Source: Verrucomicrobiia bacterium (lineage in GTDB: Bacteria > Verrucomicrobiota > Verrucomicrobiia > Palsa-1439). From it: a stretch of DNA of 64,000 nucleotides. Positions within the stretch are counted from its first letter, which is position 1. Each line of letters opens with the position of its first letter. The stretch is taken from positions 1,004-65,003 of the forward strand of contig JBEKFI010000001.1 in assembly GCA_050013395.1 (NCBI GenBank), in the 5' to 3' direction. Made by a program: the position numbers and the translations under genes. Shown piece after piece: positions 1,556 through 62,471 of the stretch. The notes beneath the pieces were generated by a model, which was not told the origin of the DNA, searched no databases, and saw nothing but the letters and a program-made list of their open reading frames with translations.

Positions 1556-1631
1556 TTCGGCTTAGATGCTACAGGAAGGCCTGTTGCATTGCAAGCCGCT
1601 GGCCGTTTTGCTAGTGTATGCGGTATATTTT

Positions 1632-3311
1632 ATGGATCGAACCGTCCAGAGAATCTGCGATCTGTTGCAGAGTCCCGATGGCATGCGACGTTGCGCGGCT
1701 GCGATGGTGCTGGCTGAACTCGCCCCAAAAGACGCGCGCATCGTCAAGGCCCTTGGCGAATCTCTCAAAGATGCCAACCAGCTTCTCACCCGCTATGTTC
1801 TCGAAGCCTTCGACGCGATCGGCACGCGCGCCGTCGTACCTTACGTGCTGCCGCTGCTCGATGCGGAGGACATGGAAACGAAGCTCCGCGCTGCTGCCAT
1901 CGTCGCGCGCGCGGGCGGCGACATCTTGCCCGAACTCAAACGGCAATTTGAAAAGTCGAGCGTTCAGCAGAAGCGCGTCCTCGTGGACATCGTGGCCCGC
2001 ATTCACACCCGCGAGGCCATGCAGATCATCCTCAACGTTTTGTTCGATCCAGATTTCGAACTCGTGAAGGAAGCCTGCCAGGCAGTTCGACGCCACATTG
2101 GCGATGCCACGCCCAAAGAGCGTGCCATGCTCCACAAACAGGTCGCGAAGTTCACGAATTCCTCGCGCGTCAAAAAGAATGACCGTGTGTTGAGCTCCTG
2201 CTTGCTGTTGGTTGGCAACATCGGCGCTCCCAACGCCCGCAACATTCTGCTCAAACACACAACGCTCAGGAACCTCGGCTACATCCGCCGCAACGCATTG
2301 ATCGGCCTCAAAGGCTTGGAACTCACAGGCGCTGCGGCCAAGGCGACCGCCCGCCAGATGCTGAAGTATCTGGCGGACTCTGACACCATGGTTGCGCAGC
2401 ATGCGTTGGACATTCTTGAGAAGCTTCCATTGTCTGGCTCGTACGACTCGCAGTGGCGCAAGCTGTTGAAGAACAAACATCCGGTCGTCCGAGGGTTCGC
2501 TGCTCGCAGGCTCGCGGTCAGCGACAACGCCGCCACCAACCGATTGATGATGACGCTGCTGAACCACGAGGACGCGCAGGTCGGTGAGATCGCCGCCGGC
2601 GCGCTCGCTCGTCACAAACGCGCCACCAAGCTGTTGCTCGCCGCACTGGCGCGGGAACGCAAAACCGAAGCGGCTTGGCGACTGGCAAAAATCCTTAAGC
2701 CTCACAGCGAGTCTGTGGACAAGAAGATGCTCAAGAAATTCGCCGCGCTCGCCGCCCGCGATCTCGAGTCGGGGAATCCGCGCTACGAAGCACTGTTTTA
2801 CTTCCTGTGCAACATCGATCCGAAGGTGGCGGATGGGGTGGTGCGCGACGTCGGCTTGAAATTCAAGAAGGTAAAGAGATGGTCGAAGGCAGTCGAATGC
2901 CTGCGGCAACTGGCGCGGTCCGAAAGTTTCGACCGGGAACTGCGCTACGAACTCAGCGTTTGCAACCTGAAACAGTCGCAAAAGGATCTCGCCCAGCATT
3001 TGCGTGCCGGAGATCAGGCTCTGCGTGGTTTTCAGGCGTTACTGCCGGACAAATCGTTCAAGCTGCTGGAGCGATTGAAGAAAGAAAAAGTCCTCGATGC
3101 AGCCGATCTTTATTATGTCGGTTTCCACTTTAGCGAAGGCACAGGCGACGAGCAAAAGTTCGGTCAGAAGCTGCTCGAGCACGTGGCGAAATGCTGGCCC
3201 AAGACCAAGGAAGGCAAAGCCGCCCGCAGCAAGCTGAAGCTGGCGACCCAGCCGCCGGTTGTGACGCGAACTGCCCTGCCGACCACGGAACCTAAGGAAT
3301 CGCAAGAGTAG
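1632..3311 (+). CDS. HEAT/armadillo-type repeat protein
   Basis: Repeated ~35-40 aa helical units rich in leucine and alanine. The start is assigned to MDRTVQ inside the longer tracked ORF. Confidence 0.6.
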   Translation: MDRTVQRICDLLQSPDGMRRCAAAMVLAELAPKDARIVKALGESLKDANQLLTRYVLEAFDAIGTRAVVPYVLPLLDAEDMETKLRAAAIVARAGGDILPELKRQFEKSSVQQKRVLVDIVARIHTREAMQIILNVLFDPDFELVKEACQAVRRHIGDATPKERAMLHKQVAKFTNSSRVKKNDRVLSSCLLLVGNIGAPNARNILLKHTTLRNLGYIRRNALIGLKGLELTGAAAKATARQMLKYLADSDTMVAQHALDILEKLPLSGSYDSQWRKLLKNKHPVVRGFAARRLAVSDNAATNRLMMTLLNHEDAQVGEIAAGALARHKRATKLLLAALARERKTEAAWRLAKILKPHSESVDKKMLKKFAALAARDLESGNPRYEALFYFLCNIDPKVADGVVRDVGLKFKKVKRWSKAVECLRQLARSESFDRELRYELSVCNLKQSQKDLAQHLRAGDQALRGFQALLPDKSFKLLERLKKEKVLDAADLYYVGFHFSEGTGDEQKFGQKLLEHVAKCWPKTKEGKAARSKLKLATQPPVVTRTALPTTEPKESQE

Positions 3312-17053: not shown

Positions 17054-19645
17054 ATGACAAACAGTAGACAAGTTGCGGCCCGGTCCAATGGACGACTCAT
17101 CATCTTGGCAGTCGGCGCGCTCGGTTTCTCTTCCGTCATTACGCAGTTGGCGTTAATGCGGGAGATGCTGGGAGCGTTTGCGGGCAACGAGATGGCGTTG
17201 GGAATCATTCTCGGCAACTGGCTGCTGTTGACGGGAATCGGCGCGTGGCTCGGCCGGACCAGCAACCGTCTCCGCAATCCACGACTCTTGCTCGTACTCT
17301 TACTCTTGCTCGTCGCTCTCCTGCCGCTGGCGCAGGTGTATCTGCTTCGAACATTGCGCGATGTGGTGTTCGTCCGGGGCGCATTGGTCGGCGTGACTGA
17401 GACGATCCTGGCAAGTTTTGTCCTGTTGTTGCCTTACTGCATCGTGTCCGGATTTCTGCTGACGCTGGCGTGCGCGATTGTGGGAGCGGCGTCCCCGCCG
17501 CGATGTGTAGGGGCCGGTCGCGGCGGGGACGCCGCTCCCACGAGTACAGAGGAAATTGGGGCGTCCGGTATTGGCCGGGTGTATGTCGCGGACAGCGTCG
17601 GCAGCATTGCCGGTGGTGTGCTGTTCAGCTTCGTCCTCGTCCGATGGTTGGATCATTTCGCCATGCTGTATCTGCCGGCCCTGCTGAATCTCATGATGGC
17701 GGGAGTTCTGGCGTGGAACTACAGTGGCGACGAACGAATTGTTGGCCGCGAAGCCGAAGACGCCGCTCGTCGTGAAGCGGCAAAGGCACAAGAAGACGCA
17801 AAAGGAAGCATTGCCTCTTCCGTTTTTGCGACACTTTGCGCCTTTTTGCGGCAATTGATCTGTCGTCGATGGTTGCTCGTTTGTGTTGTGACGGTCATCA
17901 CGCTGGCGGTAGTGGCACTGATGTTCCTCACCGACATGGATGCAGTTTCGACGGCGCGGCAGTTTGCGGGACAGAAGATTGTTTTCAGGAAGAATTCGCC
18001 TTACGGCAAGCTCATCGTGACGGAATCGGCGGGACAATTCAACTTCATCGAGAACGGCCTGCCGATCATCTCGACGCACAACGTCGAGCAGGTGGAAGAA
18101 ACCGTTCACTACGCCATGGCGCAGCGGCCCGACGCGCGCAAGGTGTTGCTGGTGTCGGGCGGCGTGTCGGGAACGGCGAAAGAAATCCTGAAGTACGGTG
18201 TGAGCGAGGTGACCTACGTGGAACTCGACCCGCTCATCATCGAGGCGGGACGGAAGTACCTGCCGGACAGCCTGGCCGACCCGCGGATCAAGGTGGTCAA
18301 CACGGATGGACGGCTGTTTGTGAGAGAGGTAGGGCGCGACCGCCGGGCGCGCCGTGGTCCCGACGAAAGCGGGCGGCCCGGCGGTCCGCCCCTACCGGAA
18401 GTGGGTTGCGATGTGGTGATTGTGGACGTGCTTGCGCCGTCCACATCGCAGATCAACCGGTTCTATACCGCCGAGTTTTTCGGCGAGGTCAAACTAATAT
18501 TGACGCCGGGCGGCGTGCTTTCTCTGTCGCTGGGGCGTTACGAAAACTACGTCAGCAAAGAACTGGCACGAATGCTGGCATCGGCTCATGCGACGTTGAG
18601 GCAATCGTTCCGAAACGTGCTCGTGATTCCGGGCGGACGCGTTTTCTTTCTGGCATCGGATGGCGAACTCTTTCCTGATATTGCGGCACGAATCGAGCAA
18701 CGGCGCATCCCGACGCAGTTGGTGAATCGGCATTACCTCGATGCGATGTTGACGCCCGACCGGATAAGCGATCTGCAGCGGGCGATGGCGCAAACTGCAG
18801 CCGTGAACAGGGATTTCAGCCCGGTCTTATACTATTACCATTTGATGCACTGGATGAGCCAGTTCAAGGTCAGGTTCGGTGTTCTGGAGACGGCGTTGCT
18901 GGTCGCGCTCGCGGTTTATCTGTTCACGATTCGTCCGGTGCCGCTGGCAATCTTCGTGTCGGGATTAGCGGCGTCGGCGCTTGAGGTCGTGTTGTTGCTC
19001 GGTTTCCAGATTCTTTACGGCTCGGTCTATGGGCAATTGGGAATCATCGTCACGATGTTCATGGCAGGGTTGGCGGTCGGAGCGTGGGTGGGAAACCGGG
19101 GCCTGATGCGCAACGACACGAACCCTCACCCTGGCCCCCGGTCGCCTCTGGCGCCGCCTACGGCGGGTAAACCTCTCCCTTCGCGGAAGGGAGAGGGAAA
19201 TTTCTCTCCCACGTCATCGGGGGAGAGGATCAAGGTGAGGGGGCAAGCTGTTCATACCGGAGATTGGGAGGCGATGCGTCTTTTGGCCGTGCTCGCCTTC
19301 GCCATTGCCGGGTTGTCGGTGCTGGTGCCGCTGGTGTTGATGGCGCTGGGACGACTGGGCGGGACGACAACCGGCCTTGTGACGGTGCGGGTGGTGATTG
19401 CTTTGTTGACGTTTGTTCTGGCAATGTTGGTCGGCATGGAGTTTCCAGTCGCTTCTCAAGTGGAGTTTGTCGGTCGTGCCGCCACTGCGTCGCGGTTGTA
19501 CACGGCCGATTTCGTCGGCGCATCTCTGGGTGCGTTGCTGGCGAGCACGTTTCTGATTCCGTTGATCGGCGTGACGGCGGTGTGTCTGCTGACGGCGGGA
19601 CTGAACGTCATCGGCGGAGCGGTCGTTTTGTTGAGAAGACAATAG
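17054..19645 (+). CDS. Spermidine-synthase-like aminopropyltransferase with N- and C-terminal polytopic membrane domains, carrying three in-frame repeat insertions
   Basis: VLLVSGGVSGTAKE...VVIVDV...GGVLSLSLG methyltransferase fold flanked by many TM helices. Confidence 0.75.
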   Translation: MTNSRQVAARSNGRLIILAVGALGFSSVITQLALMREMLGAFAGNEMALGIILGNWLLLTGIGAWLGRTSNRLRNPRLLLVLLLLLVALLPLAQVYLLRTLRDVVFVRGALVGVTETILASFVLLLPYCIVSGFLLTLACAIVGAASPPRCVGAGRGGDAAPTSTEEIGASGIGRVYVADSVGSIAGGVLFSFVLVRWLDHFAMLYLPALLNLMMAGVLAWNYSGDERIVGREAEDAARREAAKAQEDAKGSIASSVFATLCAFLRQLICRRWLLVCVVTVITLAVVALMFLTDMDAVSTARQFAGQKIVFRKNSPYGKLIVTESAGQFNFIENGLPIISTHNVEQVEETVHYAMAQRPDARKVLLVSGGVSGTAKEILKYGVSEVTYVELDPLIIEAGRKYLPDSLADPRIKVVNTDGRLFVREVGRDRRARRGPDESGRPGGPPLPEVGCDVVIVDVLAPSTSQINRFYTAEFFGEVKLILTPGGVLSLSLGRYENYVSKELARMLASAHATLRQSFRNVLVIPGGRVFFLASDGELFPDIAARIEQRRIPTQLVNRHYLDAMLTPDRISDLQRAMAQTAAVNRDFSPVLYYYHLMHWMSQFKVRFGVLETALLVALAVYLFTIRPVPLAIFVSGLAASALEVVLLLGFQILYGSVYGQLGIIVTMFMAGLAVGAWVGNRGLMRNDTNPHPGPRSPLAPPTAGKPLPSRKGEGNFSPTSSGERIKVRGQAVHTGDWEAMRLLAVLAFAIAGLSVLVPLVLMALGRLGGTTTGLVTVRVVIALLTFVLAMLVGMEFPVASQVEFVGRAATASRLYTADFVGASLGALLASTFLIPLIGVTAVCLLTAGLNVIGGAVVLLRRQ
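17481..17540. repeat. Perfect 23-bp inverted repeat with 14-nt loop (60 bp) inside the CDS
   Basis: tgggagcggcgtccccgccgcga / tcgcggcggggacgccgctccca; the length is a multiple of 3. Confidence 0.7.
18328..18396. repeat. GGTAGGGCGCGACC...GGTCCGCCCCTACC palindromic element, 69 bp, in-frame in the CDS
   Basis: Same family as 60779-60848; partial copies at 49338-49376 and 54046-54060. Confidence 0.75.
19140..19244. repeat. Composite NPHP/GEG/GERIKVRG hairpin repeat, 105 bp, in-frame in the CDS
   Basis: gaaccctcaccctgg...cctctcccttcgcggaagggagaggg...ctcccacgtcatcgggggagaggatcaaggtgaggggg. The same modules flank the DUF559 genes. Confidence 0.75.
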
Positions 19646-22492: not shown

Positions 22493-23817
22493 GGGAGAAT
22501 CCGAAATCGGAAATCCGAAGCCGAGCCACAGGCGAGACCTGCGCAGCAAATCCGAAACGGGTTGGGATCAGCCGGCGCGAGGCGATCGGGTACGGCGTTG
22601 CTGGTTTGGTCTGCCTGGCGGGAGCGAAAGGGCTGATCGACTATTTCCGGCGGTTCTTTGAGAGTGAGAGCCCCGCCGACATTTTCAAGGGCGACGCGCC
22701 GAGCGACGAAGTATGGGCGCTCTGGCAAAAGCGCGGTTGGACAAAAGAGGGTTACCACTACCTCAAGCTCGACCGCAACGTGCAGTGCAAGATCTGCCCG
22801 AACAATTGCATCCTCGCGCCCGGCGACCGCAGCCATTGCCGCAACCGGATCAACCGCAACGGCACGCTCCACACGCTGGCTTACGGCAACCCGTGCAGTT
22901 TTCACGTTGACCCGGTCGAGAAGAAACCGCTGTTCCATTTCCTGCCGGGCACCGCGTCGTTTTCGTTGGCGACCGCTGGTTGCGTGTTCCGTTGCCTGAA
23001 TTGCCAGAACTGGGAAATTTCGCAGAAGAAACCCGAGGAGACGAAGGACCCGCGCGGCCCGGAGTTTCGTTTGCGTCCGCCGGTCCCGGCGGCGTTGAGC
23101 ATGGAACAGATGGCGCGGCTGAGCATGTTCCCGGAAGACGTGGTGGCACTGGCCGGTGAACTGCGCTGTCCTTCGATTTCCTACACTTACTCCGAGCCGG
23201 TTGCCTTTTACGAGTACACGTACGACACGTGCAAGCTCGCCCGTGAGAAGAAAATCAGGAACATCATGGTGACGTGCGGCTCGATCGAAGAGCGGCCGCT
23301 CCGCGACCTGGCTCAATACGTGGACGCCGCACATGTTGATCTGAAGGGATTCGATGAGGACGTTTACTGGAAGCTGAACACAGGACGGCTCAAACCGATT
23401 CTCAACACCTTGAAGACGCTTCAGGACATGGGCGTGTGGTTTGAGATCATCAACCTCGTTGTCCCAACCTATACCGACAAACCGGACACAATCGCGCGGA
23501 TGTGTGATTGGCTGGTGGCGAACATCGGTCCGGATCATCCGATTCACTTCTCCCGGTTCCACCCCGCGCACAAACTCGAACACCTGCCACCGACGCCGGT
23601 GGAAACGCTGTTGCAGGCGCGCGCCATCGCGCAAAAGGCCGGCCTGCGCTACGTGTACGTCGGTAACGTCCGCGGCGTGCCCGACGTCGAAACCACGTTC
23701 TGCCCCGGCTGCAAACGCGCCATCATCGAACGCGACGTGTTTGCCATCACGAGCTTCAACATCGAAGCCGGCCACTGCAAGTTCTGCCAGACCAAGATTG
23801 CCGGCGTGTGGTCGTGA
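22474..23817 (+). CDS. AmmeMemoRadiSam system radical SAM enzyme with ~88-aa N-terminal extension containing an RR/hydrophobic (Tat-like or anchor) segment
   Basis: YHYLKLDRNVQCKICPNNC...GTLHTLAYGN and ATAGCVFRCLNCQNW (CxxxCxxC). The N-terminus reads SRREAIGYGVAGLVCLAGAKG. Part of the extension is encoded by a GAAATCCGAAA-type repeat. Confidence 0.75.
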   Translation: MAMDQIGENPKSEIRSRATGETCAANPKRVGISRREAIGYGVAGLVCLAGAKGLIDYFRRFFESESPADIFKGDAPSDEVWALWQKRGWTKEGYHYLKLDRNVQCKICPNNCILAPGDRSHCRNRINRNGTLHTLAYGNPCSFHVDPVEKKPLFHFLPGTASFSLATAGCVFRCLNCQNWEISQKKPEETKDPRGPEFRLRPPVPAALSMEQMARLSMFPEDVVALAGELRCPSISYTYSEPVAFYEYTYDTCKLAREKKIRNIMVTCGSIEERPLRDLAQYVDAAHVDLKGFDEDVYWKLNTGRLKPILNTLKTLQDMGVWFEIINLVVPTYTDKPDTIARMCDWLVANIGPDHPIHFSRFHPAHKLEHLPPTPVETLLQARAIAQKAGLRYVYVGNVRGVPDVETTFCPGCKRAIIERDVFAITSFNIEAGHCKFCQTKIAGVWS

Positions 23818-30411: not shown

Positions 30412-30921
30412 TCAACTTCCTTTCGTGTTCACGTTGGAACCTGATTGTCCCCTCTCCCTTGCGACGCAAGGGAGAGGGTCAGGGTGAGGGTTCCCCGCCG
30501 TCCGTGATTCCAATTCGATCAAGGTCGCGGCCAGCACGCCTTCTTCGTTGTCGTTAAGCTGAAAATTCCAGAAACGTAGCACACGCACCCCCCTGCTTCT
30601 CACGTACGCGTCCATGTTGGTGTCCGCTTCCTTGCGCTGCGGCGCGCCGTGTACATCGCCGTCCAGTTCCACAGCAAACTTCGCCGCGGCGCAGTAGAAA
30701 ACCCGAGACGTAAGGACCGAGCGGATGCTGGCGCCGAAACTTGAAAGCTGCAAACCGCCGATTTCGTAGGAGCCGCCAAAGCCATTGTTCGGCCAAGGTG
30801 GCGTTTCGCCGTAGAGAACGGGCACGAATCGTCGAGGAATTCGGGACATCCCCCTCACCTTGATCCCGCTCTGAGCGGGATTGATCCTCTCCCCCGTGCA
30901 TCGGGGGAGAGGAGACACCAA
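30412..30921 (-). pseudogene. Frameshifted DUF559 endonuclease-domain gene flanked by NPHP/GERIKVRG hairpin repeats, inserted between cydA and cydB
   Basis: The C-terminal half AAAKFAVELDGDVHG...VRVLRFWNFQLNDNEEGVLAATLIEL matches the 59109-59729 paralogue. The N-terminal motif WLWRLLRNRRFAAFKFRRQHPLGPYV is in another frame. Repeats at 30449-30493 and 30850-30915. Confidence 0.65.
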
Positions 30922-49337: not shown

Positions 49338-49376
49338 GGTGCGCCGAAGCGGACGGCCCGGCGGTCCGTCCCTACC
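49338..49376. repeat. Partial copy (right arm) of the GGTAGGG palindromic element
   Basis: gcgccgaagcggacggcccggcggtccgtccctacc. Confidence 0.6.
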
Positions 49377-55076: not shown

Positions 55077-57061
55077 AAGAGCAATCCGACGGCGACATTC
55101 GCATCGGGTGTTACGTCTGCCATTGCGGCACGAACATAGCCGGGGTGATCAACGTTAAGGCGGTGACAGAGTACGCCGCCAAACTGCCGTGCGTGGTTGT
55201 GTCACGCGACTACAAGTACATGTGCTCCGATCCGGGCCAGGCGCTGATCCAGCAGGACATCAAGGACCATAAGTTGAACCGCGTCGTCGTCGCGTCGTGC
55301 TCACCACTGTTGCACGAGCGCACCTTCCGCAATGCCTTGGAAGGCGGCGGGCTGAATCCGTTCTGTCTCCAGATGGTCAACATCCGCGAGCATGACTCGT
55401 GGGTGCACGAACCGGGCAAACCAGCGACCGAAAAGGCGCGGGCGTTGGTGCGCGCCGCGATCAAGCGCGTTGCGTTGCACAAACCGCTGGAGAAGAAGGA
55501 GACCAAGATTCATCGCGATGTGCTGGTGGTCGGCGGCGGCATTGCCGGGATTCACGCGTCTCTGACTCTGGCCAACGGCGGCATGACCGTTTACCTCGTC
55601 GAACGCGAGGCGACGATCGGCGGGCACATGGCGAAGTTCGACAAGACGTTCCCGACGCTCGACTGCGCAGCGTGCATTCTTACGCCGAAGATGTCGGCCG
55701 TCGGCGAGAACCCGAACATCAAGCTGTGGACCTACTCAGAAGTCGTGAAGGTCGAGGGCTACGTCGGCAACTACAAGGTGACGGTGAAACGCAAGCCGCG
55801 ATATATTATCGAGGATTTGTGCGTCGGCTGCATGAAATGCGTCGAGGCGTGCGTGTACAAGGAGGGAAAGACCGAGGACGACTTCAACGAAGGTCTCTCC
55901 AAGCGCAAACCCGTGTACATGCCGTTCCCGCAGGCGACGCCGTTTTTGGTGCTGTTTGATCCGGAAGCCTGCATCCAGCTCAAGACGGGCAAATGCAAGA
56001 AGACCTGCGTCGAGGTGTGCGATCGCAAGGCGATCAAGTTCGACCAAAAGGAAGAACTTGTCGAGATCAACGTCGGCACGATCATTCTCGCCACTGGTTT
56101 CCAGACGTTCGACGGGAAACGTTTGCCGCAATACGGCTACGGCGTGCATCCAAACGTGTTCTCCGCGATGCAAGTCGAACGCATGGTCAATGCCAGCGGC
56201 CCGACCGAAGGCCACATCACATTGAAGGACGGCGGCAAACCGAAGGCGGTCGGTATCATCCACTGCGTCGGCTCGCGCGACAACCGCACCAACCGCTGGT
56301 GTTCGCGCGTCTGCTGCATGTACTCGATGAAGCTCGCCCACCTTATCAAGCAGCACACTGATGCCGAGGTGTTCAACTTCTACATCGATATCCGCGCGCC
56401 CGGCAAAGGATACGAGGAGTTTTACGAGCGGTTGCAGGAGGAAGGTGTCCATTTCATCCGCGGCCGCGTCGCCGAAGTCACCGACTGGGCGGCGAGGAAA
56501 GAGGAGGAAGGCAGACTCGTGATCCGCGTCGAGGACACGCTTGCCGGTTTCGTTCGGCGTATCCCGGTTGACATGGTTGTTCTGGCGAACGGTCTCGAAC
56601 CGCAAGCCGACTCCCAGGATGTGCGGCGGATGTTCAACATCAGTTGCTCGACCGAAGGCTGGTTCCTGGAGCGCCACCCGAAACTCGCGCCCGTGAACAC
56701 CTTCACCGACGGCATTTTCCTGGCCGGTTGCTGTCAAGGCCCGAAAGACATCCCCGACACGGTCGCCCAAGCGGGTGCGGCCGCGGCGGAGGCGTATGCG
56801 TTGATCAACGCCGGCGTAATCGAGCTTGAACCGAATACGAGCTACGTCGTGGCTGACGATTGCAGCGGATGCAAGACCTGCATCCCGCTTTGCCCGTACA
56901 CGGCGATCAGCCGCGACGAGGTGAAAAAGAAGGCCGTCATCAACGAGGCGTTGTGCAAAGGTTGCGGCGTATGCGTCGCGGCCTGCCCGAGCGGGTCGAT
57001 TTACCAGAACCTGTTCAGCGACGAAGAAATCTTCAGCGAAATCGAAGCGGTCATCGGATGA
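55073..57061 (+). CDS. hdrA: Heterodisulfide reductase subunit A (FAD, multiple [4Fe-4S])
   Basis: VLVVGGGIAGIHAS FAD fold; several Cys clusters. Confidence 0.9.
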   Translation: MKEQSDGDIRIGCYVCHCGTNIAGVINVKAVTEYAAKLPCVVVSRDYKYMCSDPGQALIQQDIKDHKLNRVVVASCSPLLHERTFRNALEGGGLNPFCLQMVNIREHDSWVHEPGKPATEKARALVRAAIKRVALHKPLEKKETKIHRDVLVVGGGIAGIHASLTLANGGMTVYLVEREATIGGHMAKFDKTFPTLDCAACILTPKMSAVGENPNIKLWTYSEVVKVEGYVGNYKVTVKRKPRYIIEDLCVGCMKCVEACVYKEGKTEDDFNEGLSKRKPVYMPFPQATPFLVLFDPEACIQLKTGKCKKTCVEVCDRKAIKFDQKEELVEINVGTIILATGFQTFDGKRLPQYGYGVHPNVFSAMQVERMVNASGPTEGHITLKDGGKPKAVGIIHCVGSRDNRTNRWCSRVCCMYSMKLAHLIKQHTDAEVFNFYIDIRAPGKGYEEFYERLQEEGVHFIRGRVAEVTDWAARKEEEGRLVIRVEDTLAGFVRRIPVDMVVLANGLEPQADSQDVRRMFNISCSTEGWFLERHPKLAPVNTFTDGIFLAGCCQGPKDIPDTVAQAGAAAAEAYALINAGVIELEPNTSYVVADDCSGCKTCIPLCPYTAISRDEVKKKAVINEALCKGCGVCVAACPSGSIYQNLFSDEEIFSEIEAVIG

Positions 57062-58560
57062 GGAAAATCCGAAATCCGAATATCGAAATCCGAAATGAGC
57101 ACGAAGCCCAAATGACAAAACGCGGCAAACAACGGCAGATGAAACCGCAGATGAACACAGATGGACGCGGATTCACAACCTCAGGTTGTCATTCTGAGCG
57201 AAGCAAAGAATCTCAGTCGTCAGGGCATGGTGGCGCGGGCGTCTCGCCTGCGGTTGTTCCAAGCCGGAAAGGAGACTCGAGATGAATGCGTCCGAGTCAG
57301 GCAACCGTAAGAGTCAAGAGTTGCCCCGAGCAACGACGAGGGGGACATGCTAGACGCGGTCAAATGCCGGATTCTTGGTCACGTGCGAGGGGCTGAATAT
57401 GACCGCACTTCCAAATGCGACAGATGTCATACGATGTTGCCAGACCCGGACAAACTTCGAGAAGTCATCAGGAAACCGCCGAATGACGAGGTTCGTAACC
57501 AAGCCATTGCACTATATAAACAGATTGTTTGTGAAGCACCGTATTCCGCGGGTTGCCCTCAGTGTTCGAAGGCGATCAGTGTTTTACGCTTCTTGGTGAC
57601 GGAGGTGACTCGTTGTAAGCACTGTGGCGCAACAATGGTGTTCCTTGAATGCGGATTCCATGATTACGTAGATGCCCTTCCAATTGAAGAAAAGCTCTCG
57701 GATTTCTATCGGGGATTGATTTCTGCAATCCAAGAAATGAGGCGAGAGGAAGATGTAGAGCACGATGGGACTCGCCTCCGTATCGTACCGGCTGATGTCG
57801 TTCAAGCGGTTCAGACGAGAAATGAGGAAGCGCTACTTCGATATCTCGATGTCCATACCGAACTTGAATGGGATCGAAGTCCATTTGGAGAACTCCAAGA
57901 CTTCACACCATTTGACAAAGGCGCGATGATCCGAGCTGTGGCGGCAAGAGAACTCGGGAGATTAAGGTCGCACAGAGGCGTTGATCAATTGAACGCGATA
58001 TTGTTCAACGATCCCAATGCGGAGGTCAAGCGAAGCGCGGCGATTGCTCTAGGCGAAATAAACTACTACCCCGCCGCCTCCGCTCTCATCGCGGCTCTGC
58101 GAAACTGCTCGGAGGATGTTGGTGTCCGAATAATGGCTGCATTAGCGCTTGGTCAGTACTGCGATGAGGAGAGCGAGGCAGCGTTGAAGGCATGTCTTCC
58201 TGCAACTGGCGTCAAAGAAAACGGCGCTCGGGCCAAACTACGCGCTGCAATAGTAGCTGCTCTGAAGTCGCGCGGTGTCGCAAGTGCCGGCATACTCAAG
58301 ATTTGACTAAATGAATGGGTTAACTTCTGACACATGACAATGATACACACAGCCGCAAGCCGGGACGCTTGCACTGCCATGACAACGACGAAACGACAGA
58401 GATGCTTCGACAAGCTCAGCATGACAGTGGTGAGGAATCCGCGTCCATCCGCGTTCATCTGCGGCTTCACCGGCCGTTGTTTCGGTCATTTGAGTTTTCG
58501 TCATTCGGGTTTGTTTCGGATTTCGAATTTCGTGCTTCGGATTTCGCGGCGGCTCGCCGC
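57062..58560. mobile_element. About 1.5-kb non-autonomous element with ~140-bp imperfect inverted terminal repeats carrying one low-GC passenger gene
   Basis: The left terminal repeat (57062-57200) and the reverse complement of the right one (58395-58560) share cgaaatccgaa...gcacgaa...caaatgac...gcagatgaac.cagatggacgcggattc...gtcat.ctgagc...gaagca. The 57200-58300 interior is visibly more AT-rich. Confidence 0.6.
57347..58306 (+). CDS. Passenger gene: N-terminal Cys-rich zinc-ribbon-like region plus C-terminal HEAT (PBS-lyase-type) repeats
   Basis: CxxC...CxxC...CxxC pattern; repeats AEVKRSAAIALGEI and EDVGVRIMAALALGQY. Confidence 0.55.
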   Translation: MLDAVKCRILGHVRGAEYDRTSKCDRCHTMLPDPDKLREVIRKPPNDEVRNQAIALYKQIVCEAPYSAGCPQCSKAISVLRFLVTEVTRCKHCGATMVFLECGFHDYVDALPIEEKLSDFYRGLISAIQEMRREEDVEHDGTRLRIVPADVVQAVQTRNEEALLRYLDVHTELEWDRSPFGELQDFTPFDKGAMIRAVAARELGRLRSHRGVDQLNAILFNDPNAEVKRSAAIALGEINYYPAASALIAALRNCSEDVGVRIMAALALGQYCDEESEAALKACLPATGVKENGARAKLRAAIVAALKSRGVASAGILKI

Positions 58561-58572
58561 TGAGGAGAATAA

Positions 58573-59112
58573 ATGATAAATCAAACCACCGTACAACCCC
58601 AACCTGCCACCAGCACCGCCGCGTTTGAGCCGCGCATCGTCGCGTTCTTCTGCAACTGGTGCACCTACACCGCCGCGGACCTGGCCGGCGTGTCGCGCAT
58701 GAAATACGCGCCCAACGTTCGCATCATCCGCCTGATGTGCTCAGGCCGGCTGGATCCGCAATTCATCATGGCCGCGTTCGCGAAGGGCGCGGACGGCGTG
58801 CTCATCGGCGGCTGCCACCCCGGCGACTGCCACTACGTCGAGGGCAATTATAAGACGCTCCGCCGGATGGATCTCCTGAAGCGGATGTTGAAAGACCTCG
58901 GCATCGAGGAAGACCGCGTCCGCCTCGAATGGATCAGCGCCAGTGAAGGCGACAAGGTCAAGTGGGCCGTCAACGATATTGTCGAGAAAGTCCGTGCGCT
59001 TGGCCCGTTGAACATGCCCGGGAAATTCAAGGATTGGGACAAGGAGATTGAGGAGCTGGCCGGGGAAGTTCAGGCCCAGGATAAAGAGCAAGCACCGGCA
59101 CACGTCGCATGA
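58573..59112 (+). CDS. mvhD: Methyl-viologen-reducing hydrogenase delta subunit
   Basis: FCNWCTY...LMCSGR...GGCHPGDCHY motifs. Confidence 0.85.
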   Translation: MINQTTVQPQPATSTAAFEPRIVAFFCNWCTYTAADLAGVSRMKYAPNVRIIRLMCSGRLDPQFIMAAFAKGADGVLIGGCHPGDCHYVEGNYKTLRRMDLLKRMLKDLGIEEDRVRLEWISASEGDKVKWAVNDIVEKVRALGPLNMPGKFKDWDKEIEELAGEVQAQDKEQAPAHVA

Positions 59113-59729
59113 ACCACGGAATTCACAGGGATCTGTCTCCTCTCCCCCGTCGTACGGGGGAGAGGATCAAGGTGAGGGGGATGGCCAGAGCGCTCCGCCG
59201 CGAGCCGACTTGGGCCGAACGGACACTGTGGCGTCATCTGCGAAATCACCGTTTCTGCGCGTACAAGTTCCGCCGTCAGCATCCCAACGGTCCATACGTA
59301 TTGGACTTCTACTGTGTGTCGGCGAAGCTGGCCATCGAGTTAGATGGTGATCCTCATGGGTATCCAAACCAGAAGAATCACGATGAGTCAAAGGATCGTT
59401 ACCTCGCTCAGCAGGGCATTCGCGTTCTGCGGTTCTGGAACGATGACCTGAGAGAAAACAAAGACGGCGTGCTGGTGACAATTCTGCAAGAACTCGAACA
59501 GCGAACGGAGGAGAACCCTCACCCTGACCCTCTCCCTTACGCTACAAGGGAGAGGGGAGACAATTTGAAGGAGAACCCTCACCCTGACCCCTGGTCGCCC
59601 CTGGCCGCCTCCGGCGCCGCCAAAGGCGGGCAAGCTTTGGCGCCCCGCTGCTGCGGGGGTAACCCTCTCCCTTCCACTGCAAGGGAAAGGGGAAACAATT
59701 TGAAGGAGATCGCGAACTATGTCCACTAA
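59109..59729 (+). CDS. DUF559 endonuclease-domain protein (Vsr-like fold), flanked by NPHP/GERIKVRG hairpin repeats
   Basis: WRHLRNHRFCAYKFRRQHPNGPYVLDFYC...ELDGDPH...VLRFWN. The repeat-derived N-terminus (SPLPRRTGERIKVRG) and C-terminus (NPHPDPLP x3) suggest the native start is near 59184. Confidence 0.7.
   Translation: MNHGIHRDLSPLPRRTGERIKVRGMARALRREPTWAERTLWRHLRNHRFCAYKFRRQHPNGPYVLDFYCVSAKLAIELDGDPHGYPNQKNHDESKDRYLAQQGIRVLRFWNDDLRENKDGVLVTILQELEQRTEENPHPDPLPYATRERGDNLKENPHPDPWSPLAASGAAKGGQALAPRCCGGNPLPSTARERGNNLKEIANYVH
59512..59700. repeat. Three tandem NPHPDPLP/GEG hairpin repeat units at the 3' end of the DUF559 gene
   Basis: gagaaccctcaccctgaccc occurs twice, with ctctcccttacgctacaagggagagggg and ctctcccttccactgcaagggaaagggg hairpins. 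Confidence 0.7.
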
Positions 59730-60720
59730 ACCGAAAATCGCTTTTTATTGGTGTGCGTCTTGCGGCGGTTGCGAAGAATCCGTCGTCGACCTCGCTGAGG
59801 ACATTCTCATGGTGCTCGATGCCGTGGACATCGTGTTGTGGCCCGTCGCGATGGATTTCAAGAAGAAGGACGTCGAGGCGATGCCTGACAAATCCATCGT
59901 GGCGACCTTGCTCAACGGTGCGATCCGTACTTCCGAACAAGAAGAGATGGTGCGCTTGTTGCGCCGCAAAAGCCAGTATCTCATCGCTTACGGTTCCTGC
60001 GCCCACACCGGTGGCATTCCTAGCCTCGCCAATCAGTTCAGCCGCGAGCAAATTATGAAGTACGTCTACGAGGAAGCGCCCACGGTGGTGAACCCCGACA
60101 ACGCAAGCGCTGTCGGGGCAGGCGCTTTGAAGACGCGGCCGGTAACGGAGTTCCGGGACAACGGCCACACTGCCACACTGCCCGTGTTTCGCAACGTGGT
60201 TCGCGCGCTCGACCAGGTGGTGGAGGTGGACTACTACATCCCCGGCTGTCCGCCCACGCCGAAACTGTTGAAAGAGGCAGTGCTGGCGTTGCTCGCGGGC
60301 AAACTGCCGCCGAAAGGCAGCGTGCTCGCCCCCGACATGGCTCTGTGCGAGCAATGCCCGCGCATTGACAGCAAACCGCAGGACCTGAGCCTCACCGAGT
60401 TCAAGCGTCCGCACCAAGTCATCATTGACCCCGACAAATGCCTGCTGGCTCAGGGCCTCGTCTGTATGGGCCCGGCCACGCGGGGCGGCTGCGAAGCGCG
60501 CTGCATCACGGGCAATATGCCGTGCACCGGCTGTTTCGGTCCAACCAGCCGCGTCCAGGACCACGGCGCAAAAATCCTGAGCTATTTGGCCTCAACCGCA
60601 GCCGGCAAAGAAGACAAGGAGATCGAAAAGATATTGGCCGGGATCCCTGATCCTGTCGGCACATTTTATCGTTACGGTTTGGCGAAGTGCCTCCTACGCG
60701 GCCGCGTGGGCGGCCCGTAG
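59719..60720 (+). CDS. mvhG: [NiFe]-hydrogenase small subunit (F420-non-reducing, Mvh-type)
   Basis: FYWCASCGGCEES...GCPP motifs. Confidence 0.85.
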   Translation: MSTKPKIAFYWCASCGGCEESVVDLAEDILMVLDAVDIVLWPVAMDFKKKDVEAMPDKSIVATLLNGAIRTSEQEEMVRLLRRKSQYLIAYGSCAHTGGIPSLANQFSREQIMKYVYEEAPTVVNPDNASAVGAGALKTRPVTEFRDNGHTATLPVFRNVVRALDQVVEVDYYIPGCPPTPKLLKEAVLALLAGKLPPKGSVLAPDMALCEQCPRIDSKPQDLSLTEFKRPHQVIIDPDKCLLAQGLVCMGPATRGGCEARCITGNMPCTGCFGPTSRVQDHGAKILSYLASTAAGKEDKEIEKILAGIPDPVGTFYRYGLAKCLLRGRVGGP

Positions 60721-60935
60721 GAAATCCGAAACCCGAAACAAGCACGAATGACCAAAGTAGCAACGACCAAGACGCGTGGTAGGGCGCGACCGCCGGGCGC
60801 GCCGCTCTTCACAACGGCTTCGGACGGCCCGGCGGTCCGTCCCTATCGTCTCGCGCCTTGTTTGGAGCATTTCCGTCATTCGAATTTCGGATTTGTTTCG
60901 TGCTTCGAATTTCGGATTTCGAGTTTTCCTCTCAT
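60721..60935. mobile_element. MITE-like element: short inverted repeats of the GAAATCCGAAA family flanking a GGTAGGGCGCGACC palindrome
   Basis: Left arm gaaatccgaaacccgaaacaagcacgaatgac; right arm is the reverse complement of cgaaatccgaaattcgaagcacgaaacaaatccgaaattcgaatgac; palindrome core 60779-60848. Confidence 0.6.
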
Positions 60936-60944
60936 GGAGGTTTT

Positions 60945-62471
60945 ATGAACGAATCAGTCAAGCGCATCTTCAACGAAGCCCACAATAATGCCGGCCAGTC
61001 CTACATGACACGGCGGCACGTCGCCATTGACCCGATCACCCGCCTCGAAGGCCATGGCAAGATCGACATCTTCCTGGACCAGAAAGGCGAGGTCGAGCGG
61101 GCATACTTCCAAGTGCCCGAGATGCGCGGGTTCGAGGTGTTTTCCATCGGACGACCGGCCGAAGACATGCCGCAGATCACATCGCGCATTTGCGGCGTCT
61201 GCCCGACAGCGCATCACATGGCGGGAACAAAAGCGCTGGACGATTTGTACAAAGTCGAGCCGACTTCGGCGGCGAAAAAGATCCGCGAGTTGGTGTACAC
61301 CACGTTTATGCTCGAAGACCACGCGTTGCACGTCTACATCCTCGGCGGCCCGGACTTCATCGTGGGTCCGGATGCGCCTCCCGAACTGCGCAACATCGTC
61401 GGCGTGATCCAAAAGGTGGGCCTTGAGATTGGCAAGCGAGTCATCAGCACGCGCCGCCGCTTGCGCGAGTTGATCACGTACCTCGGCGGCAAGGTGATTC
61501 ATCCCGTGCTCGGTCTGCCCGGCGGCGTCGCGAAGGGGATGTCGCCGGCGGACCTGCCGCAGTTCCAGCAACTGGCCAAGGACGGCCTGGATTTTGCGCA
61601 GTTCACGCTGCAGGTCTTCAAGGACATCGTCCTGAAGAATGAAGCTTACGTGAAGCTTATCACGTCGGACACCTACACCCATCGCACCTACTACATGGGC
61701 ATGGTGGACGCGAACAACAAGGTCAACTTCTACGACGGCAAGATTCGCGTCGTCACGCCGGACGGCAAGGAGTTCGCGAAATTCGCCCCGCAACAGTACC
61801 GCGACTTCGTGGCCGAACACGTCGAGCCGTGGAGTTACATGAAGTTCTGCTACTTGAAACCCGTCGGGTGGAACGGTTTCACCGAGGGCGAGAAGAGCGG
61901 CATTTACTCGGTGGCCCCGCTGGCGCGATTGAACGTGTCCGACGGTCTGGCGACGCCGCTGGCCCAGAAGGCGTACGAGGAATTCTACGCGACGCTGGGC
62001 GGTAAACCCGTCCACCACACGCTGGCCAACCACTGGGCGCGCGTCGTCGAGATGCTGTACGCCGCCGAGCGGATGAACGAACTCATCAACGATCCAGAGA
62101 TCACCAGCAAAGACCTGCGGGTCATCCCGACCGCGAAACCCACGGTCGGCATCGGCGTGGTCGAAGCGCCGCGTGGCACGTTGATCCACCAGTACGAGAC
62201 CGACGACAACGGAATCATTCGCAAAGCCAATCTTATCGTCGCGACACAGGGCAATTCTGCCCGCATGGCGATGAGCGTCGAGAAAGCTGCCAAGGGACTG
62301 ATCCACGGTGGTGAGGTGAGCGAGGGATTGCTTAACAAGGTCGAGATGGCCTTCCGTGCGTACGATCCCTGCTTGGGCTGCGCCACGCATGCCATCGGCC
62401 AGACACCGATGATTGTCACGATCCGCGACGGGTCTTCGGGCCGCGTTTTGCGCACGTTGCGGCGCGATTGA
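60945..62471 (+). CDS. mvhA: [NiFe]-hydrogenase large subunit (group 3c-like)
   Basis: RICGVCPTAHH N-terminal and DPCLGCATHA C-terminal Ni-binding motifs. Confidence 0.9.
   Translation: MNESVKRIFNEAHNNAGQSYMTRRHVAIDPITRLEGHGKIDIFLDQKGEVERAYFQVPEMRGFEVFSIGRPAEDMPQITSRICGVCPTAHHMAGTKALDDLYKVEPTSAAKKIRELVYTTFMLEDHALHVYILGGPDFIVGPDAPPELRNIVGVIQKVGLEIGKRVISTRRRLRELITYLGGKVIHPVLGLPGGVAKGMSPADLPQFQQLAKDGLDFAQFTLQVFKDIVLKNEAYVKLITSDTYTHRTYYMGMVDANNKVNFYDGKIRVVTPDGKEFAKFAPQQYRDFVAEHVEPWSYMKFCYLKPVGWNGFTEGEKSGIYSVAPLARLNVSDGLATPLAQKAYEEFYATLGGKPVHHTLANHWARVVEMLYAAERMNELINDPEITSKDLRVIPTAKPTVGIGVVEAPRGTLIHQYETDDNGIIRKANLIVATQGNSARMAMSVEKAAKGLIHGGEVSEGLLNKVEMAFRAYDPCLGCATHAIGQTPMIVTIRDGSSGRVLRTLRRD

Follow-up and report, generated by a model that had tools for sequence, protein, structure and literature searches.

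Intervening sequences (IVSs) of rRNA that contain an S23p open reading frame (ORF) are cut by RNase III, as described for Leptospira and Coxiella, and IVSs are located at the apices of rRNA helices (PMC4990558). Repetitive extragenic palindromic (REP) sequences form dimers within long palindromes, and miniature inverted-repeat transposable elements (MITEs) are summarised in the same work (PMC3733652). Here we describe an element from a Verrucomicrobiia bacterium, found in a stretch of 64,000 nt (contig JBEKFI010000001.1, positions 1,004 to 65,003) that we call the window and number from its first letter. The spacer between hdrA and mvhD holds a 1.5-kb insert, a long imperfect palindrome with a single orphan gene in its centre. 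By analogy the element would work most like an ORF-bearing rRNA IVS, while in form it resembles a mobile insertion cassette (MIC). We see an even chance that it is a fossil stack of IVS-like palindromic cassettes that landed in one another's centres, with exchange of the orphan cargo.

A repeat search of the window gave core arms of 48 nt each (57127-57174 and 58435-58482) that are 90% complementary, and outer arms (57060-57120 and 58496-58546) with a complementarity of 72-78%; a 28-mer of the arm occurs twice in the 64 kb at up to 3 mismatches (0.00 occurrences expected from shuffles). Aligned with the two arms of an orthologous element in a relative, L124 (the four-arm alignment), the arms extend to about 200 nt each (57062-57261 and 58350-58560), and 137 of 199 aligned positions are complementary between them. 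The inverted repeats around an AT-richer interior that an earlier note had read from the letters alone are thus confirmed (GC content 51.7% in the interior and 59.4% in the window), although the 140 bp it allowed them is too short. The insert block is the same, letter for letter, in a second assembly, and a Logan contig with both its ends inside the arms covers 57066-58424 with identical sequence; the block is therefore no assembly artefact. Profile hidden Markov models (HMMs) for two of the arm modules, A and C, were built from other organisms' arms only and are called foreign-arm HMMs in the following list of the features of the insert.

57059-57064, unstranded: left flanking direct repeat TGAGGA, formed by the hdrA stop codon TGA and GGA (from the sequence)
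57062-57261, plus strand: left arm of stacked half-palindromes (repeat search, four-arm alignment and profile HMMs)
57062-57126, plus strand: left module A, 7-nt periodic GAAATCC...GCACGAA...AATGAC (foreign-arm HMM E = 1.9e-10)
57141-57175, plus strand: left module C, CCGCAGATGAACACAGATGGACGCGGAT (foreign-arm HMM E = 1.2e-11)
57188-57214, plus strand: left module D, GTCATTCTGAGCGAAGCAAAGAATCTC
about 57228-57261, plus strand: left module E, GGTGGCGCGGGCGTCTCGCCTGCGGTTGT
57262-58349, plus strand: unique interior (cargo region), GC 51.7%, no DNA similarity to the interior of L124
57283-57354, plus strand: upstream ORF of 23 codons with an AAGGAG Shine-Dalgarno sequence, its stop overlapping the cargo start (read from the sequence)
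57347-58306, plus strand: cargo ORF of 319 aa with HEAT_2 and CxxC motifs, the only gene in the interior
58350-58560, minus strand: right arm with the modules mirrored (repeat search, four-arm alignment and nhmmer)
58350-58382, minus strand: module E' of the right arm
58399-58425, minus strand: module D', GAGATGCTTCGACAAGCTCAGCATGAC
58435-58467, minus strand: module C' (nhmmer E = 9.4e-12)
58477-58546, minus strand: module A' (nhmmer E = 6.3e-16)
58546-58560: terminal mini-hairpin at the right end, GCGGCGGCTCGCCGC
58561-58566, unstranded: right flanking direct repeat TGAGGA, also the mvhD Shine-Dalgarno sequence (GAGGAG), with the mvhD ATG at 58573

By Pfam the operon genes around the insert are hdrC, hdrB and hdrA upstream and mvhD, mvhG, mvhA and hypB downstream, which bears out the location in the hdrA-mvhD gap of an hdrCBA-mvhDGA operon. 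That operon is not otherwise canonical, as the earlier note had called it, since a DUF559 cassette is present between mvhD and mvhG.

Syntenic operons were reached through mvhD homologues, and they agree with the proposal that the block is an insertion in the hdrA-mvhD spacer. In L123, the closest relative (95% identity in the last 500 residues of hdrA), a clean spacer of 15 nt, TAGCAAGGAGACTTGTCCATG, lies at this site, and a DUF559 cassette follows mvhD as well; L253 has the same empty 15-nt spacer. In L126-L132 the hdrA/mvhD and mvhD/mvhG gene pairs overlap by a few bases, and in L254 hdrA and mvhD overlap, yet a DUF559 cassette follows mvhD. In an empty hdrA-mvhD allele, GAATAAATG would directly join TGAGGA. 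The filled site is that of L124 (hdrA 86% identical), where an element with the same module order and orthologous arms lies at the exact same position. The left arm is about 81-83% identical to L124 4884-5079 and the right arm about 75-80% identical to L124 5771-5990, and the arms of the two genomes have 22 left/right asymmetries in common. BLASTN of the window against L124 aligns the arms only, so that the breakpoints of homology are the inner arm ends. The L124 cargo is a different orphan HEAT ORF of 202 aa; the two cargoes have in common only the start MLPDPxxLR and about 31-35% identity across the repeats. Divergence in the arms is similar to that of the coding DNA next to them, so divergence in place does not account for the interior, which was apparently exchanged. 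The branching order from hdrA identities is ((W, L123), L124), where W is the window, and two histories fit it: either the stack is older than the split of the window and L124 lineages and the line leading to L123 lost it seamlessly, or there were two separate gains at one and the same position.

The arms are built of four or five concentric half-palindromes in the order A C D E - gene - E' D' C' A'. Module A is an array with a 7-nt period (GAAATCC GAAGCAC GAAATCC GAAACAA ... AATGAC), and the general forms of the others are CCGCAGATGAACRCRGATGGA for module C, GTCATKCTGAGC...GAAGMATCTC for module D and GCGTCYCGCCTGCGG for module E. With nhmmer the four A arms of the window are matched at E = 6e-16 to 4e-9 and its two C arms at about 1e-11, in mirror orientation, as inverted partners; beyond those arms the A and C models match nothing in the window except, marginally, a half-arm at 22498. 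Each of the modules A and C is a palindromic element family of its own, present in many bacterial phyla. What the earlier note took for terminal repeats are indeed multi-copy sequences, but they make up a nested stack of separate modules, at least two of which are families in their own right.

Pattern scans placed family A at at least 120 loci in species-representative genomes, of which a handful are chance matches, and family C at at least 120 metagenome loci, where its typical form is a compact palindrome with a span of 61-274 nt. The metagenome-assembled genomes (MAGs) with family A are labelled Planctomycetota, Desulfobacterota, Verrucomicrobiota, Omnitrophota, Nitrospirota, Patescibacteria, Actinomycetota, Microthrixaceae, Hydrogenedentota and others. 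Among the matches listed, 87 of 134 A arms have an inverted partner at most 320 nt away (median span 136 nt), and most A and C copies are compact hairpins of 60-270 nt. The left arm had no BLASTN match in PLSDB plasmids or INPHARED phages. Scans of IMG/VR matched module A 8 times and the window-type module C not once, and with so few matches a phage vehicle is not indicated. Literature searches, which were not exhaustive (the repeat string, GxxExxY, DUF559, and inverted repeats of IVS-protein genes), returned no description of arm-plus-cargo cassettes; the repeat families are widespread yet barely described.

Elsewhere both families frame genes of their own. The long loops of family C usually hold a GxxExxY gene (TIGR04256, E = 1e-34 to 1e-42, in L138, L196, L209, L220 and L232), and in these five loci the gene starts within the arm, where CAG ATG AAC GCA GAT GGA CGC AGA (CAGATGAAC..) encodes MNADGRR. 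Family A loops in L063 (a Pirellulales MAG) and L253 hold four-helix-bundle (4HB) genes of the 23S-rRNA-IVS-protein type (TIGR02436, PF05635). The L253 cassette comes from a Logan contig of an organism closely related to that of the window and sits in its hdr-mvh operon, at the mvhD-mvhG site, in place of the DUF559 cassette. The two cassettes (L063 4560-5060 and L253 584-1085) align end to end with arms about 85-90% identical, while their cargo genes share about 68% nucleotide identity (estimated from the alignment) and 72% protein identity. In both, the cargo ATG lies inside the arm motif AATGAC and the peptide begins MT(K/N)..YDLEDRT. With start codons inside them, the arms are part of the gene cassette and yield characteristic N-terminal peptides in databases. 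Compact A loops in part retain remnants of the 4HB N-terminus (e.g. L085), which suggests that compact A copies are deletion derivatives. In the left arm of the window, the ATG of the module A motif AATGAC shares its reading frame with the module C ATGs over 57111-57285, giving MTKRGKQRQMKPQMNTDGRG...; this may fit inner cassettes landing in the 5' coding end of outer ones, or is perhaps a coincidence. An Opitutaceae-type variant of the heptamer palindrome (GAATGAC/GAATGTC units) at L094 3680-3990 has a loop ORF of 72 aa with a ClpX-type C4 zinc finger, a further cargo that is not standard. Five long-span arm pairs that were considered as cargo elements (L070, L085, L116, L018 and L097) are actually, in each case, two separate complete palindromes flanking ordinary genes.

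In 6 of 7 other loci, and wherever a cassette lies in an operon, the cargo is co-oriented with the host gene upstream of it. What recurs is thus a single gene without a promoter of its own, set between palindromic arms that are better conserved than the gene. Integron cassettes are likewise promoterless single genes, often orphans, co-oriented with upstream transcription, but here two half-palindromes flank the gene and there is no single 3' attC, integrase or array. An integron cassette was accordingly rejected for the insert, which has half-palindromes on both sides of the ORF, with no attC and no integrase among the scanned ORFs of the window.

The likeness to an ORF-bearing rRNA IVS lies in complementary termini that would enclose one small ORF in a long stem within a region that is presumably transcribed, in a position at the apex of a hairpin, in a GC content below that of the host, in sporadic presence among relatives and in the lack of a transposase. 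The IVS protein family itself (PF05635 / TIGR02436) is the native cargo of the module-A cassettes of L063 and L253. Unlike an IVS, the element lies in an mRNA intercistronic spacer and not in rRNA, its arms are multilayered and about 200 nt long against an IVS stem of 28 bp, and its cargo is a HEAT/CxxC orphan, not an S23p four-helix bundle.

Successive landing of cassettes, each in the centre of the previous one and each leaving its arms, is favoured as the simplest way to perfect mirror order, and has parallels in the REP dimers inside long palindromes (PMC3733652) and in the IVSs at rRNA helix apices (PMC4990558). Another origin would be that the operon of this clade has long had the HEAT gene as an accessory gene, that REP- or MITE-like insertions accumulated on both its sides, and that the closest relative deleted the region. 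HEAT genes with a common N-terminal motif at the same site in two lineages would suit this, as would the abundance of palindromic repeats in the operon's other spacers. We nevertheless consider it improbable: independent insertions on the two sides are very unlikely to mirror each other exactly over four or five modules, neither arm is a complete palindrome alone, the window and L124 lose homology exactly at the inner arm ends, both HEAT genes are orphans of low GC content, and the empty site is seamless in L123 and L253.

Mobile insertion cassettes, of which MIC231 of Bacillus cereus is an example, and MITEs share with the element the bounding inverted repeats, the lack of a transposase, a passenger gene, presence/absence polymorphism and compact gene-less relatives. 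The insert could then be one non-autonomous transposon with terminal inverted repeats (a MIC, or a MITE with a passenger), moved by a transposase encoded elsewhere and duplicating TGAGGA on insertion. The earlier note had proposed a non-autonomous element, which is supported in part: the block is an insertion, is bounded by long inverted repeats and holds one gene. Clean empty sites in relatives, a multi-copy outer module and a module order that is the same in the window and L124 likewise favour the transposon. The note was also right that no transposase lies inside the insert; no transposase, integrase or IS200/RAYT-type Pfam match (RAYT, REP-associated tyrosine transposase) was found in about 40 scanned ORFs of the window. 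To our knowledge there is no cognate insertion sequence or transposase for these cassettes. An IS200/IS605-type element was rejected, as the ends have no subterminal hairpins.

The 6-bp direct repeat TGAGGA at both ends is what a target-site duplication would look like, but only GGA remains of it in L124, and the repeat overlaps the mvhD Shine-Dalgarno sequence. Over 17 compact family-A copies the mean duplication is 2.12 nt, against 2.09 nt under the null, and the ends of the family are ragged with variable heptamer counts. The composite ACD..dca was seen solely at hdrA-mvhD, in the window and L124, among about 250 retrieved loci, while modules A and C stand alone elsewhere, in many copies and with their own native cargoes; orthologous copies keep the arms and differ in cargo. 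Another difference from MICs and MITEs lies in the arms, which here keep their sequence across phyla and include the cargo's start codon. A unitary transposon is thus unlikely, though it is the strongest of the alternatives to a stack.

With a GAAA linker between them, the two arms are predicted to form 153 pairs with each other at -222 kcal/mol, equally well on either strand; relative to shuffled versions of the right arm, z = -17. The stop codon of hdrA and the Shine-Dalgarno sequence of mvhD fall just outside the predicted stem. Such a stem could be a selected regulatory RNA that uncouples hdr from mvh expression, as an insulator or as a site of processing, with the HEAT protein working with the Hdr-Mvh complex. 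The high stability of the fold, the sparing of the two flanking signals and the co-orientation with the operon would agree with it. ERICs (enterobacterial repetitive intergenic consensus sequences) are a precedent for intercistronic palindromes: they are imperfect palindromes in transcribed operon spacers of enterobacteria, fold in mRNA and can affect its stability, but they measure 127 bp, lack an ORF and occur in just a few related families. Comparison of the window and L124 arms gave one compensatory column against 40 paired in one genome only, and the arms of both show no G.U strand bias. Without covariation, selection for an RNA or DNA stem is unsupported, and the decay of pairing looks neutral. 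The element is missing from the closest relative and most others, its cargo is not conserved, an Rfam search of 56800-61100 gave no match, and a promoter/terminator scan gave nothing above shuffle expectation. The regulatory RNA is therefore disfavoured and is in our estimate the least probable of these explanations.

Other points weigh against the stack that we prefer, beside the covariation counts and the flanking TGAGGA, which is compatible with a target-site duplication. Since the composite is seen at one locus only, it could be one unitary element and not a stack built in place, and no intermediate (A only, or A containing C) was found at the hdrA-mvhD site among the relatives examined. 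Modules D and E would be independent of the others too, as one D-type apex in L124 may suggest. The taxon labels of the MAGs may be wrong, and RNase III processing would be pure analogy with the rRNA IVSs.

The cargo ORF matches Pfam HEAT_2 (E = 5.9e-19) at residues of about 190-290. Its N-terminal half has two CxxC pairs, C70/C73 and C90/C93; the zinc-ribbon-like character read into it earlier corresponds to matches below threshold, while a single ORF with Cys-rich N-terminus and HEAT repeats is indeed what the interior holds. Alternative starts are M30 (57434) and M97, the latter called by NCBI, which gives the last 223 aa only. Residues 1-190 have no homologue but themselves among 1.84 billion representative proteins, and searches with the HEAT cargoes of the window and L124 returned only themselves or generic HEAT proteins. 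An AlphaFold2 model made without an alignment has a mean predicted local distance difference test score of 47 and is confident solely over the helical repeats at 190-290, and PADLOC gave weak HEAT-level matches only. The upstream ORF of 23 codons, with its strong Shine-Dalgarno sequence, terminates 5 nt past the ATG of the HEAT ORF, an overlap that may point to translational coupling. The window has another HEAT_2 ORF (1566-3308, 581 aa) with no similarity to the cargo detectable by tblastn.

Further cassettes and palindromes occur in the window.

59133-59600, plus strand: DUF559 cassette between mvhD and mvhG, ATG at 59181 (Pfam DUF559 E = 1.1e-35)
30448-30918, minus strand: second DUF559 cassette, between cydA and cydB (tblastn and alignment; Pfam for cydA and cydB)
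60721-60935, unstranded: compact module-A palindrome in the mvhG-mvhA spacer, with arms 60721-60775 and 60862-60929
18328-18394, plus strand: GTAG-type REP dimer, the same repeat as the apex of 60721-60935
49350-49374: REP half copy of the same GTAG repeat
22496-22558, plus strand: solitary, intergenic module-A half-arm (nhmmer E = 0.032, marginal)

The two DUF559 cassettes share the architecture of the A and C cassettes but have a third type of arm, with inverted CTCTCCC..GGGAGAG hairpins plus GGTGAGGG/CCCTCACC. In the mvhD-mvhG copy the left arm is CTCTCCCCCG..CGGGGGAGAG followed by GATCAAGGTGAGGGGG, which acts as Shine-Dalgarno sequence, and the right arm is CCCTCACCCTGA followed by CCCTCTCCC..GGGAGAGGG. 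Its ORF is open to 59729, and the last 70 or so residues are translated repeat. The same cassette as in the window occupies the mvhD-mvhG site in L123 and L254. The arms of the two window cassettes are 88% identical and their coding regions 70% identical in nucleotides; the cydA-cydB copy has an apparently frameshifted coding region and a 17-nt mini-hairpin nested in its left arm. A 60-nt tandem duplication in the window (59509-59590, between 22-nt direct repeats AGGAGAACCCTCACCCTGACCC) is absent from an otherwise identical ENA assembly (L001 12163-12184), and is either true length variation of the DUF559 right arm or an assembly difference.

The palindrome at 60721-60935 had been read as a short derivative built from the same terminal repeats as the insert, a reading that does not hold: only the outermost module A is in common, and the apex is a GTAG-type REP dimer (60778-60850), so it is no deletion derivative. 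Its L124 orthologue, at the same site, has a D-type module at the apex, a further case of turnover of the centre. The REP dimer has the form GTAGGGCGCGACCGCCGGGCGCGCC...GGCGGCCCGGCGGTCCGCCCCTAC, and the apex as well as the sites at 18328 and 49350 carry GTAGGGCGCGACC... The dimer at 18328-18394 is in frame inside a spermidine-synthase-like ORF, where it adds about 20 residues within the Pfam Spermine_synth match, and it matches the REPs inside genes of Opitutus terrae (PMC3733652). The half-arm at 22496-22558 contains an inserted mini-hairpin sub-module, AAATCCGAAGCCGAGCCRCAGGCGAGACCTGCG, which is also present at the right end of the L124 element.

As extragenic palindromes that form mosaics, with REP dimers inside longer palindromes, REPs, bacterial interspersed mosaic elements and REPINs (paired REP sequences) resemble what is seen here, and REPtrons (with a RAYT gene) and TIRtrons are likewise genes flanked by inverted repeats (PMC3733652). 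The GTAG-tagged dimer is itself such a repeat, both at the apex of 60721-60935 and in the ORF at 18328-18394. Unlike REPs, the 1.5-kb element has arms much longer than 20-40-bp GTAG/CGTC units, its cargo is no tyrosine (HUH) transposase and no RAYT was among the scanned ORFs of the window, and families A and C are cross-phylum, not lineage-specific.

On the stack reading, the arms would have been laid down one cassette at a time before the split of the window and L124 lineages; the centre would have been exchanged since that split, and the block precisely lost in the lineage of L123. The operon transcript would run through the block, whose arms could pair over about 150 bp and leave free both the stop codon of hdrA and the Shine-Dalgarno sequence of mvhD. 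If RNase III then cut this stem, hdrCBA and mvhDGA would end up on different messages and the mRNA of the cargo would be set free, so that the operon could tolerate the insertion. Our preferred guess for the movement is that it occurs in trans or by homing-like recombination between arms, because the scanned ORFs have no transposase, family A has no target-site duplication above chance, the cargoes include nuclease folds and the arms are better conserved than the cargo. DUF559 and GxxExxY proteins have PD-(D/E)xK nuclease folds, that of DUF559 being Vsr-like.

A wider proposal, which we hold only tentatively and below the stack itself, is that we see here a fossil member of a class of mobile DNA that spans phyla and has not been described. 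These would be promoterless one-gene cassettes with long palindromic arms that contain start signals and with 4HB/IVS, GxxExxY or DUF559 cargoes. They would colonise spacers, hairpin apices, each other and rRNA helices, move by transposase-free homing between arms, driven by nucleases or by recombination, and occasionally capture unrelated genes like the HEAT ORF. Such a class would explain both the rRNA IVSs and nested stacks.

The four-helix-bundle/23S-IVS, GxxExxY and DUF559 families are three very common families of genes annotated as hypothetical, and we know of no agreed account of the origin or spread of the ubiquitous short palindromes of environmental genomes. This locus ties the three gene families to palindromes, as the arms that frame them across phyla are here concentric layers. 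The cassettes are found repeatedly inside tightly coupled operons (hdr-mvh and cydAB), and the centres of the palindromes turn over between close relatives. In practice such repeats break assemblies and cause false N- and C-terminal extensions, such as MNADGRR... and the tail of the DUF559 ORF. Should such a class exist, it would place the rRNA intervening sequences, long without an explanation, in a chromosomal context, and the arms as recognition or homology sites, with nuclease cargoes as drivers, would offer a testable form of transposase-free gene movement.

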